Assembly: GCA_000004985.1 (NCBI GenBank)
Contig: GG739190.1
Source of the DNA: Naegleria gruberi
Taxonomy: Eukaryota
Direction: 5' to 3' (one strand)
DNA: 4,214 nt
The translations under genes and the position numbers were made by a program. The notes under the pieces are model-generated. The model ran no database searches. It saw only the letters and a list, made by a program, of their open reading frames with translations, and was not told the origin of the DNA. Each line of letters begins with the position of its first letter. Position 1 is the stretch's first letter. Below, one piece after another: positions 197 to 4,214 of this stretch.

Positions 197-204
197 TAAT
201 CTAG
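197..204. repeat. Left copy of putative 8-bp target-site duplication, TAATCTAG
   Basis: Identical 8-mer in direct orientation immediately outside both TIRs (197..204 and 4014..4021). The identity does not extend to a 9th base on either side. Confidence 0.7.
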
Positions 205-218
205 CGGGGGGAGACAAC
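205..218 (+). repeat. Left terminal inverted repeat, CGGGGGGAGACAAC
   Basis: Exact reverse complement of 4000..4013 (GTTGTCTCCCCCCG), 14/14 matches. Similarity stops at the inner edge: 219/3999 and 220/3998 mismatch. Confidence 0.8.
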
Positions 219-285
219 CTGACTTCAACTACCACTAGGGAGGGTCATTTCCCGCCTTTCCTTTTTTGTCATATGATCAACAACT

Positions 286-292
286 AAATATT
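286..292 (+). promoter_or_regulatory. TATA-like element TAAATAT about 165 bp upstream of the ATG, inside the transposon 5' region
   Basis: Sequence only. Position is compatible with an internal element promoter. There is no transcript evidence. Confidence 0.15.
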
Positions 293-440
293 CAAATAAA
301 AACATCAGATTACCAACAACCAACAACAAAACACACCAAACCATGATCCTCTCCGCAGTTACTGAACATCTAACTCATGTTCGATTCATATTTTGGTTGT
401 TCGAGTATTTGTTGGAACTGAATCAACGTTAAAAACAATT

Positions 441-456
441 CAATCAATAAAAAAAA
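441..456 (+). promoter_or_regulatory. A-rich translation-initiation context (CAATCAATAAAAAAAAA-ATGG), yeast/eukaryote-like Kozak leader
   Basis: A run of 9 A precedes the ATG and a G follows at +4. There is no Shine-Dalgarno-like purine-rich GGAGG upstream. Confidence 0.3.
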
Positions 457-3400
457 ATGGGTCGATCATCATTCAAAGTTGAAATAAATAAAAATTGTTT
501 GGGGATTACTGATTATGATAAATTCGATATATTATTGGATGTTGAAAAGAACAAAGTAATGGATGGAAGTGGGAAAATAGCTGGCACTATTGTAAATAAA
601 TGTTTACGTTCTATTGACTGCACAAAAATTCACAACAAAAACAGAAAATCTGACTCGTGCGTGAAGTGTTGTGATTTGAAAAGCAAGCTAGATACAAATC
701 TCCAAAAAGTTCATAAAATTCTAGAAAATCCAAATACTCTTCCTCCTTATTCATCCATAATACCATATCCTCAAGTCATGTATCAACTATTACGTGAAAC
801 TACGAAAGCTTTGGGAAAGTGTGAGCCCAGTAACTTTGAAACAAAAATAATAGAATCATTAAGGAAGGCCAAAGCACAATATGAGATTAATTCAAGTCTT
901 AAATCAAAACATATTAAAATGAACAAAGATCCAACAATTGAAAATAAGCAATGTGAGCAAGAATTACTAGAAAATGAGCAAGAATTAATTGAAAATGAGC
1001 AAGAATTCATTGAAAAAGATACTGATCAATCCAAACAATCCAAAAAAACTGATAGATACACACACATTCCACCTCAAAAACAAAATCCATTATCATCCAA
1101 AGGTTTTGGAAAATTCGAGGAATGTTTTTTTGTAAAATTTCTTCATAACCAATTAGAAAATTTCACTCTACCCCCAAATGCTCACAGATATGATGAAGTA
1201 ATGAAACGGTATTGGTTTCTTGGGAGGTATTTTAGTGGAAAGCAATTTTTCAATCAACTATCCGGTAAAAAGAATCAACAAATTCCTTGTAATTGGAGAA
1301 CAAATCTGCAATACAACATAGTGATGCCAAGTAACAACACCATGAAAAACTGGTTACCAAAAGGAAGCATTGGAATATGTACATATTCTGATTCAGTATT
1401 CAATAGTTTAGAACCTAATTCGTGTAAAGAAGTATGTGTTTCAATGGATGGAATGAAGGTTCTGAAAAAATTGGAAAGAATGAACGGTCAAGTAATTGGA
1501 ACATCTCAAAAAATTAATGTGAAAACACCACCATCCAACCATAATATCAACCTTAGTGAAGTTACTGAAGAAATGGTACTTTTTAATGTTAATGCAATAG
1601 ATAACAGTTGGCATTGTCCTTTAGGATGGTTTGCTATATCTTCTGCTGACAAAATTAATGACTTCATTTACGAAAAAATGATATTATGTAATGAAAAATT
1701 AAAAGGTTACTCTCTAAAAATGGTGTGTGGATGTGCAGATGGTGAGGCAGATGCTAAAAATTTGCAGAAACTTTTACGAGAGAAAATTGATCCAAATTTC
1801 ATATTTGTGACTGATTATGTACATAATTTCAAGAATCAAAGAAATTGTTTGTTCAATGGGACAATTTTGAAAAACATTAATATGTCAACACTTATTAAGT
1901 TGATGAATAATTATCCACATCTATATGAAATGCTGGATAAAGAAGAAGTCTCACCCTCAGATATTATGGCTATTAATCCATGTCTTGAACTGACCTCTCC
2001 AAAAGTAGTAGAAGTGTTAAAATCACTCAGAAATAATGATGCTGCCATTTTGGCTAAATATTTAGAAACTATTCGAGAAGTGTATGATGTCATTAATGAT
2101 AATGATGTTGACATTGTTGATAAATTAGAATTATGTAAAGAATATTTTTCAAATATTCCTGCCAAGCAATATCCTGAAAAAACTAGAAACATTTGTCTTC
2201 ATACTATTGAAGGATTTCAATATCTTGCAAATACCTATTCAAATTTTAGACCAAGTTGTATAACAACTAATTATAATGAGCTAATGTTTTCCATTATTAG
2301 AAAGAGGTATCCACGAGCCACAGCAAAGCAATTCTGTTCATCAATATTAATTGCCTTCTATATTTTCCTATTAACATCTTGCTCAGAAGAGGTGAGAGGA
2401 TTTTCTCTTCCTGAAACGGAATGGACTGAGCATTATAGAGGAATGAAACTTAAAATTAAGTCTCTCCCAAATCTGAAAAATATTGATCCGAATTTTGTAG
2501 AATTAACTAAAGATGAAATTAATGCATTAGATAAATGGTTGACTAAGGTAAATCATAATATTGAAGGATATGTACGTAAAAGTACTCTCAGAATGGAATC
2601 ATGTGCCCCTAAAAAATTATTCCTTTGCTGCCCAATTAATGGATGTGATCGTCAAAAACCTTATATTGTGAAAGGCCAATTCAAGAATCATCTATTATCC
2701 AAGCACTCTGATAAAATAACTAGTGAACAACAAGCTATATCTGTAGTTAGAGAATTAGAGTGCAAACATTTTGAATTACAGTTTTTAGCTGATTCTGAAG
2801 TACGAAAGAACAGTGTTAACCTTAATAAGCAAGAAAGAGAAAAAATATGTGAAGAATCTTCTATATCCAATAAGTCACAAGACACAATGAGTACTCTTAC
2901 ACAACTGTCAATAAGGGACTCCAGTACGTGTGATGGTTCGACACGTACAACCATTCAACAACCAACCAATCAAATAATTACTCCTCAACTTAATAATAGT
3001 AATGGTATTGAAAAATATTTGGTTTCAAAGTATTTGAATGAAACTAAAATTCACATAGATATTAGCAATGATGATATTGTAGAGAGCGTAATATCTGTGA
3101 AAAATAATGAAAATTATCATGTTGTTGTCTTAGATTTAGAAACTACTGGGCTAATGCCAAATGACCATGAAATAGTGCAAGTGGGAATGATTTCATTAAT
3201 TTCCAAATGTGCATTTTCAATATATATTAAACCAAAATACCATGATTGGAGTAGTCATGCTAAAAAATTACATGTTGACAAAATGAATGAAATCAATAAT
3301 GGAAAACAATTAGACCAAATTATCATTCCAATCCACAATTATTTAACAAAGAACAATAGTTGTACTGCTGTTGTATTGGTACATTCAACATCATTGGACA

Positions 3401-3864
3401 GAAATTTCCTCATGAAAGCATTGACAAAACATGGCTTACCTATTGATAGGTACATGATAGTGAATACTATAAGCGAAGAATTCTTCCCTAAGCAGAAACT
3501 TGAAACACTGTTCAACCAAGTGAACAAGCCAATGAATACAACAACAAAAGATATAATAGGTGTTGCACATGATGCAGCCTTTGATACGGCCATGTTGTTT
3601 GATATAATCAAACACAAATTTGGAGATAATATTGATGGTGTTTTAGAAGCATGTATGTGCTTTCATGGTCGTCTGTGTGGTGATAAAAAGAGGAAGAAAC
3701 CTAATCATGATATTAACACAAAGAGAAAGAAGAAGAAGACAGAACCCAATACAAGTTCCGATCATTTTTTTAAACAATCACAAATAATAGAATTTATTCC
3801 CTGGACACCAGATACCAACAAAAATACAACCCGACAAAGGAAAACGAGAAGAAACAAAAAGTGA
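457..3864 (+). CDS. Transposase-like multidomain protein (1135 aa) with zinc-finger modules and a C-terminal DnaQ/epsilon-like DEDDh 3'-5' exonuclease domain
   Basis: Uninterrupted 3,408-nt ORF. An in-frame TAA at 448..450 lies just upstream of the first ATG, which sits in the A-rich context AAAAAAAAATGG. The ORF ends with TGA at 3862..3864. It lies entirely between the TIRs. Recognisable exonuclease motifs and zinc-finger spacing are present (see domain features). Confidence 0.85.
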   Translation: MGRSSFKVEINKNCLGITDYDKFDILLDVEKNKVMDGSGKIAGTIVNKCLRSIDCTKIHNKNRKSDSCVKCCDLKSKLDTNLQKVHKILENPNTLPPYSSIIPYPQVMYQLLRETTKALGKCEPSNFETKIIESLRKAKAQYEINSSLKSKHIKMNKDPTIENKQCEQELLENEQELIENEQEFIEKDTDQSKQSKKTDRYTHIPPQKQNPLSSKGFGKFEECFFVKFLHNQLENFTLPPNAHRYDEVMKRYWFLGRYFSGKQFFNQLSGKKNQQIPCNWRTNLQYNIVMPSNNTMKNWLPKGSIGICTYSDSVFNSLEPNSCKEVCVSMDGMKVLKKLERMNGQVIGTSQKINVKTPPSNHNINLSEVTEEMVLFNVNAIDNSWHCPLGWFAISSADKINDFIYEKMILCNEKLKGYSLKMVCGCADGEADAKNLQKLLREKIDPNFIFVTDYVHNFKNQRNCLFNGTILKNINMSTLIKLMNNYPHLYEMLDKEEVSPSDIMAINPCLELTSPKVVEVLKSLRNNDAAILAKYLETIREVYDVINDNDVDIVDKLELCKEYFSNIPAKQYPEKTRNICLHTIEGFQYLANTYSNFRPSCITTNYNELMFSIIRKRYPRATAKQFCSSILIAFYIFLLTSCSEEVRGFSLPETEWTEHYRGMKLKIKSLPNLKNIDPNFVELTKDEINALDKWLTKVNHNIEGYVRKSTLRMESCAPKKLFLCCPINGCDRQKPYIVKGQFKNHLLSKHSDKITSEQQAISVVRELECKHFELQFLADSEVRKNSVNLNKQEREKICEESSISNKSQDTMSTLTQLSIRDSSTCDGSTRTTIQQPTNQIITPQLNNSNGIEKYLVSKYLNETKIHIDISNDDIVESVISVKNNENYHVVVLDLETTGLMPNDHEIVQVGMISLISKCAFSIYIKPKYHDWSSHAKKLHVDKMNEINNGKQLDQIIIPIHNYLTKNNSCTAVVLVHSTSLDRNFLMKALTKHGLPIDRYMIVNTISEEFFPKQKLETLFNQVNKPMNTTTKDIIGVAHDAAFDTAMLFDIIKHKFGDNIDGVLEACMCFHGRLCGDKKRKKPNHDINTKRKKKKTEPNTSSDHFFKQSQIIEFIPWTPDTNKNTTRQRKTRRNKK
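601..672 (+). other. N-terminal Cys/His cluster (C49-x5-C55-x3-H59-x8-C68-x2-C71-C72); possible zinc-binding or DNA-binding module
   Basis: Spacing read directly from the translation CLRSIDCTKIHNKNRKSDSCVKCC. It does not match the THAP or BED consensus exactly. Confidence 0.3.
955..1017 (+). repeat. 3 x 21-bp in-frame tandem repeat encoding acidic heptads EQELLEN / EQELIEN / EQEFIEK
   Basis: The units are 955..975 GAGCAAGAATTACTAGAAAAT, 976..996 GAGCAAGAATTAATTGAAAAT and 997..1017 GAGCAAGAATTCATTGAAAAA. A partial fourth unit lies upstream at about 934..954. Confidence 0.7.
1414..1956 (+). other. Candidate RNase H-like (DDE-type) transposase catalytic region containing a [C/D]xxH motif (D453-Y-V-H456, nt 1813..1824)
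   Basis: Candidate first-D contexts are VCVSMD331GMK (nt 1447..1449) and NAID382NSW (nt 1600..1602). The candidate second D is CAD428GEAD432 (nt 1738..1752). About 25 aa downstream lies KIDPNFIFVTDYVHNFKN, which resembles the [C/D]xxH block of hAT/Mutator/P transposases; Mutator-like elements (MULEs) have FPN...CxxHxxxN here. The third acidic residue is not identifiable by eye. Confidence 0.35.
2626..2706 (+). other. C2H2-like zinc finger (C724/C725-x4-C730-x14-H745-x4-H750)
   Basis: Translation is LCCPINGCDRQKPYIVKGQFKNHLLSKH. This is Cys2-His2 spacing with a slightly long 14-residue spacer, where the canonical spacer is 12. Confidence 0.5.
2857..3006 (+). other. S/T/N/Q-rich low-complexity linker (aa about 801..850), likely disordered
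   Basis: Translation is SSISNKSQDTMSTLTQLSIRDSSTCDGSTRTTIQQPTNQIITPQLNNSNG. It separates the zinc finger from the exonuclease domain. Confidence 0.5.
3109..3636 (+). other. DnaQ/epsilon-like DEDDh 3'-5' exonuclease domain (aa about 885..1060); catalytic residues D893, E895, D981, H1038, D1043
   Basis: Motif I is HVVVLD893LE895TTGLMP (nt 3133..3141). Motif II is VVLVH976STSLD981RNFL (nt 3382..3399). Motif III is GVAH1038DAAFD1043TAMLF (nt 3568..3585). Spacing is I to II 88 aa and II to III 62 aa, matching E. coli DnaQ (about 91 and 64). The segment FSIYIKPKYH also resembles DnaQ FHVYLKPDRL. Confidence 0.8.
3685..3861 (+). other. Basic C-terminal tail with bipartite NLS-like clusters (KKRKK-x7-KRKKKK and RQRKTRRNKK)
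   Basis: Translation is DKKRKKPNHDINTKRKKKKTEP ... TRQRKTRRNKK. Two K/R clusters lie at nt 3685..3741 and a terminal basic decamer at 3832..3861. Confidence 0.45.
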
Positions 3865-3999
3865 TTTTCTATGTAATATACTTGTTGTTTTACTAGGGTG
3901 GTACATTCTGTTTCATGTATTGTGGTGTTGTTCACTATGAAGCAAATATTTTTTAGTCCCGATTAGGAAGGTTTCTCAGAGTACCCTCTGTTAGCACGA

Positions 4000-4013
4000 G
4001 TTGTCTCCCCCCG
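4000..4013 (+). repeat. Right terminal inverted repeat, GTTGTCTCCCCCCG
   Basis: Exact reverse complement of 205..218. Confidence 0.8.
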
Positions 4014-4021
4014 TAATCTAG
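4014..4021. repeat. Right copy of putative 8-bp target-site duplication, TAATCTAG
   Basis: See left copy; 8/8 identical and in direct orientation. Confidence 0.7.
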
Positions 4022-4214
4022 TGAACGTAAACCACACCAGCAAACAAACCAGCTAGAAATTGCCAGCTATGGGTTACCTTTAATTTTGTAAAGAAATGCC
4101 ATTGATTACAACAGAAAATTTCAGAAGAGAATTTGGTTTTATTTTCACTATTTATAAAGCGAATATTTACACTCTAGATTTTTCTTAGGTTTGTTGTTGT
4201 TGAGCAAATTTTCA

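Follow-up and report, generated by a model that had tools for sequence, protein, structure and literature searches.

A P-type transposon of Naegleria gruberi whose transposase is joined to a predicted DEDDh exonuclease

In cut-and-paste transposition, the processing of ends and the repair of breaks are commonly regarded as tasks of the host and not of the transposase. A 4,214-nt stretch of the Naegleria gruberi genome (contig GG739190.1 of assembly GCA_000004985.1; this whole stretch is called the window here) raises the question of what a transposase might do with a nuclease of its own, as its single intronless open reading frame (ORF) was read in a first-pass annotation, made from the letters alone, as a transposase-like protein fused to a complete DEDDh 3′–5′ exonuclease domain. 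What kind of element is this, is the exonuclease a lasting part of it, and how could it serve transposition? We find that the ORF lies within a complete transposon (Table 1), which fits best into the P superfamily, as a divergent protist lineage without THAP, and of this anatomy and classification we are highly confident. The reading as a whole, a P-type transposon whose tethered DEDDh exonuclease processes 3′ ends in cis, we consider probable.

The fusion holds up on both of its sides. On the exonuclease side, the Pfam RNase_T model (PF00929) matches amino acids (aa) 890–1047 of the window protein at 24.7 bits, just above the cutoff of 24 (E = 3.8e-5), and scores up to 75.8 bits in individual relatives; NCBIfam 3′–5′ exonuclease models match the same region (best E = 3.4e-9), at scores far below their full-length cutoffs. 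A family profile of 49 sequences, with the window protein first, has as its best match the PolC-type exonuclease of Thermotoga (2p1j, E = 2.3e-24), followed by DnaQ/Pol III epsilon at ~1e-15 (1j53 and 5fku, ~2.5e-15), Exo X (8e-13), the Cas2-DEDDh protein 8fy9 (8.1e-12), RNase T and TREX2 (~1e-9), TREX1 (~1e-8), SDN1 (8e-5) and ERI1 (6e-4). The first-pass annotation had assigned the domain to the DnaQ/PolC type, and this ranking bears it out. When the same profile was used in a word-indexed protein search, nine matches were returned, mostly bacterial PolC, DinG-like and GIY-YIG exonuclease fusions. In an AlphaFold model built from the 49-sequence alignment (mean predicted local distance difference test score, pLDDT, 76.7; a model from a four-sequence alignment reached a pLDDT of 41 and was set aside), pLDDT is ~90 or more over most of the exonuclease domain, and Foldseek matches this part of the model to the DinG exonuclease, RNase T, a DnaQ domain, the TREX1 homolog Plex9.1 and the PolC exonuclease (6e-6 to 1e-4, target template-modelling (TM) scores 0.5–0.7). 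In the viral structure library the fused architecture is absent, the matches there being stand-alone exonucleases and a poor hAT-like match only.

The five catalytic residues of the DEDDh set (D893, E895, D981, H1038, D1043) are where the first-pass annotation had placed them and have DnaQ-like spacing (88 residues from D to D, 57 from D to H). They are invariant in the alignment with the three closest homologs (36–40% identical to the window protein) and kept in nearly all distant relatives, where Exo I takes the form D(L/F/M/T)ETTG, the Hx4D of Exo III is found in every relative that covers the region, and the Exo II aspartate is kept save for an apparent D-to-E change in one 1721-aa protein (P0017). 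There the hidden Markov model (HMM) alignment places NSHFEERI at the Exo II position, so that the aspartate may have been replaced by glutamate or the alignment may be off by one residue. The domain thus resembles the bacterial DnaQ, Pol III epsilon and PolC exonucleases in fold, in the Exo I DxE, Exo II D and Exo III Hx4D motifs and in their spacing, and differs from them in not being attached to a polymerase, in an Exo II motif of the form HSxxLD rather than HNxxFD, and in a structural-alignment identity of 14–24%. It appears intact and is predicted to be a catalytically complete exonuclease of the DnaQ/PolC type, and the ranking of its matches suggests a bacterial origin.

On the transposase side, the first-pass annotation had left the superfamily open, naming hAT, MULE and P/THAP9 as candidates; Pfam scans point to the P type. 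The TNP-like RNase H N-terminal domain (PF21787), which is modelled on the P-element transposase, matches aa 321–433 of the window protein at 22.9 bits, just below the cutoff of 24.6, and neither a hAT dimerisation nor a THAP domain is matched alongside it. Relatives are plentiful, as a profile search of 1.84 billion representative proteins returned 661 at E <= 1e-3 and 66 at E <= 1e-10. Among 38 distant relatives, 21 match PF21787 (best E = 1.3e-13), and none matches the hAT dimerisation, THAP or MULE families; in relatives scored individually, PF21787 exceeds its cutoff, at up to 38.7 bits. A profile of these 38 relatives made without the window protein finds the Drosophila P transposase (6p5a) at E = 1.6e-14, and a profile with the window protein first finds it at 5.2e-14; the two sets of sequences are firmly joined, the window clade aligning with the 38 relatives by hhalign at a probability of 100% (E = 1.2e-74, 697 columns). 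The alignment to 6p5a spans the first aspartate (AFDEMKV), the second aspartate (SDLGTGN), the D..H..K..RN stretch and the glutamate (VEHFFGSMRSR), which correspond to D230, D303 and E531 of the P transposase, and it is from these motifs that the predicted catalytic residues of the window protein were mapped. The insertion region also aligns with the corresponding part of 6p5a, and PF21788, the GTP-binding insertion domain, has no match in the window protein. Structure agrees with sequence here: the best match of the AlphaFold model in the PDB is again 6p5a, the P-element transposase strand-transfer complex (E = 1.3e-12, target-normalised TM 0.67, 482 columns), at ~15% identity in the structural alignment.

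The ends of the element tell the same story. The ORF is enclosed by a perfect 14-nt terminal inverted repeat, whose termini in the window read 5′-CG...CG-3′, and an identical octamer abuts it on each side; given the composition of the window, identity of an 8-mer at two fixed flanking positions has a chance probability of ~4.5e-5. P elements make 8-bp target-site duplications, and their repeats range from the 31-bp terminal repeats of Drosophila P to the 13-bp terminal and 12-bp subterminal repeats of zebrafish Pdre (PMC7776569); the window element is like Pdre in having short terminal repeats together with subterminal inverted similarity, the latter weak and gapped and, taken alone, statistically not established. 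The empty site, rebuilt without the element, has no long ORF, which places the insertion in non-coding DNA. Within the subterminal regions a G-rich motif (TAGGGAGGGTCA at 236–247 and CAGAGGGTAC at 3979–3990, on the minus strand) lies ~20–30 nt inside each terminus and resembles the outermost terminus of the related element in Naegleria lovaniensis, CAGGGAGGGTGA. As the true end of the element this inner motif was rejected, because its flanking octamers differ (ACTACCAC vs TTAGCACG) whereas the outer repeat has the exact 8-bp duplication; it may instead be a candidate internal binding site. Similar stretches in direct orientation also occur in both outer flanks (TTGTTGTTGTTAAAAATT at 109–127 and TTGTTGTTGTTGAGCAAATT at 4190–4210), and may represent either host sequence of low complexity or a portion of some older repeat that the insertion hit.

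Homologous elements at other loci carry comparable ends. The N. lovaniensis homolog, also intronless, is surrounded by ordinary host genes and was seen on one contig only; its inverted repeats of 160–172 nt begin CAGGGAGGGTGAGCC and are made up of two perfect blocks, one of 144 nt and a terminal one of 16 nt, between which lies a short mismatched, indel-bearing stretch, with an exact 8-bp (8/8) duplication, ATATTCTC, directly outside. A more distant relative on a Logan contig (L005), encoding a 1463-aa protein, has perfect 16-nt repeats (CAAGGGGGGTTAGCGG) and a duplication matching at 7/8 positions (TGAATATG/TGAATAAG). G-rich termini like those in the window thus recur in homologous elements (CAGGGAGGGTGAGCC, CGGGGAGGGAGAGCC, CAAGGGGGGTTAGCGG and CAGGGGGGGTACAC), and at two further loci they match at one end only; the termini of the relatives begin 5′-CA. 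On four other contigs (L004, L006, L008 and L009) no flanking inverted repeats above shuffle level were detected, and these may be truncated or have different ends. We also observe that the 144-nt arms in N. lovaniensis (L001, 9912–10055 and 13130–13273) include, on the left, the ATG (10001) and the first 18 codons, so that the promoter-proximal region and ORF start recur, inverted, at the right end. A subterminal motif, TTGGCGAC(G/A)TTGA, is common to the inverted repeats of this element (L001, ~9940–9960) and of a metagenomic one (L002, 142–175 and 3302–3335), where it sits just upstream of the ATG; it was not seen in the window element, and could be a candidate transposase-binding site. On two contigs from an extremely AT-rich metagenomic host, an 805-aa transposase–exonuclease ORF is closely preceded, in the same orientation, by a 168-aa ORF (L008, 1323–1829; L009, 356–862), which is probably either an exon upstream in that gene or its N-terminal part split off.

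Is the exonuclease a lasting part of such elements? Pfam scans of individual relatives place RNase_T C-terminal to the transposase core in proteins down to ~17–25% identity, and when Pfam and exonuclease HMM matches are pooled the domain is present in at least 19 members, which are dispersed across almost all major branches of a neighbour-joining core tree (a rough distance tree made from fragmentary proteins). Most members that lack it are cut off by contig ends; only three (P0025, P0035 and P0030) have long C-terminal tails yet no detectable exonuclease. Virtually all exonuclease-bearing members retain the DxE, D and Hx4D motifs, and within the window clade the exonuclease is 30–35% identical across homologs, as against 10–18% for the linker that precedes it. 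Because the domain is better conserved than its linker and scattered across the tree, we read it as an ancestral module under purifying selection. The hosts are protists: Naegleria itself and, for relatives, Protostelium and metagenomic sources. Other accessory domains occur in individual members of the family, namely an Ulp1 protease (Peptidase_C48), a zf-BED and a weak Myb-like match (P0035 and others), so that this P-like lineage has acquired further host-type modules.

How might the exonuclease serve the element? In Drosophila, cleavage by the P transposase is staggered by 17 nt and produces 3′ single-stranded extensions, with homologous recombination or non-homologous end joining repairing the donor break (PMC7776569); the exonuclease of KolobokD, a lineage of another transposon superfamily, has been proposed to degrade DNA intermediates from the 3′ end (PMC9587614). 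On these premises, the transposase described here would excise the element by a P-type staggered cut, leaving 3′ single-stranded extensions, and the geometry of such a cut implies that each donor flank would end in a 3′ overhang stemming from an inverted repeat, the two overhangs being of the same sequence and non-complementary. Because they would not pair, they would need to be removed before the flanks could rejoin. The exonuclease, tethered by its flexible linker, could act in cis on 3′-ended strands within the cleavage complex and trim these overhangs so that the break may be rejoined; alternatively, it could clean up 3′ ends on the excised element or on the gapped product of integration. 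Either way, the element would bring its own end-processing activity rather than rely on host nucleases. We put forward this specific mechanism, the trimming of 3′ overhangs after a P-type staggered cut, tentatively and by analogy, leaning somewhat against it as it stands. Of the roles suggested in the first-pass annotation, the trimming of 3′ ends is plausible, but the processing of hairpins fits poorly with a 17-nt stagger and 3′ extensions of the P type (PMC7776569).

The superfamily assignment has two competitors. The conjunction of a eukaryotic DDD/E cut-and-paste transposase with a DEDDh (DnaQ) exonuclease is also that of KolobokD, known from mollusks, arthropods and cnidarians (Kojima & Bao 2022; PMC9587614), and Kolobok elements have been reported from Naegleria and have the C/DxxH signature in common with P elements (PMC9587614). 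An HMM of 17 Kolobok cores (Data S5 of PMC9587614; four cores held out) does score some members of our family weakly, at up to 20.8 bits, but the held-out Kolobok cores score 49–138 bits and the window protein, with no significant score, is absent among the 30 matches listed, a pattern that speaks for distant kinship of the C/DxxH superfamilies and not for membership. Kolobok elements moreover make TTAA 4-bp duplications and have 5′-RR..YY-3′ termini (PMC9587614), whereas the duplications of our family are 8 bp long and other than TTAA (TAATCTAG and ATATTCTC), its termini begin 5′-CG or 5′-CA, and it matches the P transposase by both profile and structure. The exonucleases also differ in their reported relatives, that of KolobokD being closest to exuperantia, TREX and ERI1 (PMC9587614) and that of the window to PolC and DnaQ, which suggests separate acquisitions. 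Taken together, these observations leave membership of KolobokD scarcely credible. The hAT superfamily, with the P-like signal as distant kinship only, has its own attractions: hAT elements also make 8-bp duplications, the CAGGG of the N. lovaniensis terminus fits the YARNG pattern of hAT termini, Foldseek finds the Hermes transposase (2bw3) at E = 2.7e-5, and the top match in the viral library is a hAT-like protein of Pandoravirus. The Hermes match is nevertheless poor (TM 0.25, root-mean-square deviation 28.9 Å) beside the TM of 0.67 for 6p5a, and Hermes chains are missing from the profile searches that return 6p5a at ~1e-14; the hAT dimerisation domain (PF05699) finds no match in the window protein or in the 56 relatives scanned, one of which has a zf-BED match; and the signature of DxxH followed by KNxRN and ENxFSxxR aligns with the motifs of the P transposase. 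We consider a hAT assignment extremely unlikely.

Several of our own results weigh against a P-type element with an exonuclease active in transposition, and two further readings draw on them. Both Pfam models give marginal scores for the window protein by itself, and the window's own four-sequence profile does not reach 6p5a at E < 1, so that the link to P is made through the wider family. A THAP domain was matched neither in the window protein nor in the 56 relatives scanned; it is typical of animal P/THAP9 elements, and whether the superfamily as a whole is defined by it depends on convention. Treated simply as a local alignment, the 14-nt repeat scores 28, only modestly above chance (shuffles: mean 21.3, maximum 31), and the case for it as the end of the element comes from the adjoining 8-bp duplication and from the related termini of homologous elements. 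The evidence for mobility rests on one duplication per locus. Neither a second copy nor a deletion derivative of the window element was found by exact protein look-up or by pattern scans of metagenome and viral contigs, and the same scans, made with family patterns, returned no relatives. One could therefore suppose that we are dealing with something immobile, either a domesticated host gene, as the setting of the N. lovaniensis homolog among ordinary host genes on a single contig might also suggest, or an accidental read-through from a transposase into a captured host exonuclease exon. Inverted repeats and 8-bp duplications (7/8 in L005) at three independent loci, with perfect identity across 144 nt in N. 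lovaniensis, tell against the former, and the latter, which the first-pass annotation had itself raised in case related copies should lack the domain, is excluded as a one-off chimera by the intact DEDDh set of fused proteins down to ~17–25% identity, the fusion being present in at least 19 relatives; overall, we hold an immobile gene to be very unlikely. The remaining points concern function. That cleavage in this lineage leaves 3′ staggers is inferred from Drosophila P, and DEDDh enzymes include RNases, so that the substrate could be RNA. The element could then be just as we describe it, with an exonuclease that acts on RNA or on DNA outside transposition, for example on silencing small RNAs in the manner of ERI-1 and SDN-type RNases, or on stray DNA: many RNases share the DEDDh fold (RNase T, oligoribonuclease, REXO2 and SDN1 are among the profile and structure matches), and suppression of silencing would presumably benefit a transposon selectively. 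The ranking of matches disfavours RNA, the best of them being DNA proofreaders (PolC, epsilon and Exo X) far ahead of SDN1 and ERI1, and covalent fusion in at least 19 lineages suggests action inside the transposition complex. These points are not decisive, and we regard such a role outside transposition as improbable without dismissing it.

With an exonuclease acting in transposition kept as the preferred reading, the element can be set beside the systems already described. Like Drosophila P, vertebrate THAP9 and zebrafish Pdre, it has the first D, second D, DxxH..K..RN and E..FF/FS..R motifs in alignment, the predicted fold of the P transposase and an 8-bp duplication; unlike them, it has a different Cys-rich N-terminus in place of a detected THAP domain, adds a C2H2 finger and a C-terminal DEDDh exonuclease, and lives in protist rather than animal hosts. 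The Cas2-DEDDh trimmer-integrase of prokaryotes, already met among the profile matches, likewise fuses a DEDDh exonuclease to a DNA-integrating enzyme. Its exonuclease trims the 3′ overhangs of DNA awaiting integration in CRISPR adaptation. The integrase itself is unrelated (Cas1-Cas2 and not DDE), and the likeness is thus an analogy of design and not family membership. To the first-pass annotation such a domain was unknown from any cut-and-paste superfamily described so far, and in this it is contradicted both by KolobokD (PMC9587614) and by one sentence of Bao & Jurka (2013; PMC3627910), which cites Kapitonov for P and piggyBac transposons with a DEDDh nuclease. The window element, which likewise joins a P-superfamily element to a DEDDh nuclease, is most probably a member or relative of Kapitonov's DEDDh-bearing P group. 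The group is known from that sentence only: the word DEDDh is absent from the meeting report cited there, which also lacks sequences, hosts and architecture, and we found no fuller description of a P-type transposon with a DEDDh nuclease in the literature.

The remainder of the protein and of the window offers some further features (Table 1). Near the N-terminus lies a Cys-rich cluster that is possibly, to judge from its residues, a zinc-binding DNA-recognition module. Between this and the core, a short tandem repeat sits in an acidic, helical insertion of the N-terminal region that is absent from the three closest homologs, and is thus a recent in-frame expansion. Between the core and the exonuclease there is a C2H2-type zinc finger, for which the family profile gives weak matches to C2H2 fingers such as those of GLI and YY1, and the basic C-terminal tail resembles a bipartite nuclear localisation signal. 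The window yielded neither Rfam families nor tRNAs.

Table 1. Features of the transposon in the N. gruberi window, with positions counted from the first nucleotide of the window.
Feature	Position	Strand	Basis or remarks
Complete transposon, 3809 bp	205..4013	+	Bounded by terminal inverted repeats and 8-bp duplication
Left target-site duplication copy, 8 bp, TAATCTAG	197..204		Same octamer as 4014-4021; abuts terminal inverted repeat
Right target-site duplication copy, 8 bp, TAATCTAG	4014..4021		Abuts right terminal inverted repeat
Left terminal inverted repeat, CGGGGGGAGACAAC	205..218	+	14-nt perfect reverse complement of 4000-4013
Right terminal inverted repeat, GTTGTCTCCCCCCG on + strand	4000..4013	-	Pairs with 205-218
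Left subterminal region, weak gapped inverted similarity to 3965-3999, including G-rich TAGGGAGGGTCA at 236-247	219..262	+	MAFFT, left flank against reverse-complemented right flank
Right subterminal region, weak inverted similarity to 219-262, including CAGAGGGTAC (minus strand)	3965..3999	-	MAFFT flank alignment
Single intronless ORF, 1135 aa, transposase-exonuclease fusion	457..3864	+	ORF list (stop codon within coordinates); end-to-end alignment with three homologs
N-terminal Cys-rich cluster, aa 49-74 (C49, C55, H59, C68, C71)	601..678	+	C-x3-(C/H)...C-x2-C pattern common to homologs P0001 and P0002
21-nt tandem repeat, three in-frame copies, 92% matches, encoding (E)NEQEL(L/I) units	954..1016	+	Tandem Repeats Finder and repeat search
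P-element-type RNase H-like DDE core with helical insertion domain, aa 321-620	1417..2316	+	PF21787, profile, hhalign, Foldseek
Predicted catalytic residues D331, D428, E608	1447-1449, 1738-1740, 2278-2280	+	Mapping from alignment to 6p5a motifs
DxxH signature, D453-Y-V-H456	1813-1824	+	Nearly invariant in 49 sequences
C2H2-type zinc finger, aa 724-750 (C725, C730, H745, H750), between transposase core and exonuclease	2626..2706	+	Four residues invariant in four-sequence alignment
Linker, aa 791-884, poorly conserved, low confidence	2827..3108	+	10-18% identity to homologs vs 42-55% for core; pLDDT <50 at aa 804-852
DEDDh (DnaQ/PolC-type) 3′-5′ exonuclease domain (predicted), aa 885-1060	3109..3636	+	Pfam RNase_T, profile and structure matches, conserved catalytic residues
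Exo I, VLDLETTGL	3127-3153	+	D893, E895
Exo II, HSTSLDRNF	3382-3408	+	D981
Exo III, AHDAAFDTAM	3565-3594	+	H1038, D1043 = Hx4D
Basic disordered C-terminal tail, aa 1075-1135 (KKRKK, KRKKKK, RQRKTRRNKK)	3679..3861	+	Sequence reading; pLDDT <50; homologs without tail

Curators are therefore aware of P-type transposons with a DEDDh nuclease, which are essentially uncharacterised. DEDDh-bearing transposons have received mention in passing (P and piggyBac) or in brief (KolobokD), and none has been studied biochemically. What we add is the exact boundaries and target-site duplication of such an element, catalytic maps of both enzymatic domains, evidence for the ancestral and widespread nature of the fusion in a THAP-less protist lineage, and an indication that the exonuclease is of the PolC/DnaQ type, as opposed to the TREX/ERI type reported for KolobokD. 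That a proofreading-type exonuclease has remained joined to a P-type transposase throughout a very divergent family, and has kept its catalytic residues, speaks for a contribution of the nuclease to transposition. Work on it can start from the window, which provides an intronless 3.8-kb element that is compact and intact and has defined ends. More speculatively, and we think this doubtful in its full form, a deep protist branch of the P superfamily may have captured a PolC/DnaQ-type exonuclease once, early and independently of KolobokD, which would since then have been an obligatory and active ‘trimmer-transposase’ that removes P-type 3′ overhangs. If this were true, the family would be a eukaryotic parallel to the Cas2-DEDDh trimmer-integrases, the recruitment of exonucleases would be convergent among DDE transposons, and there would be a direct experimental handle on how 3′ overhangs are processed after P-type excision.

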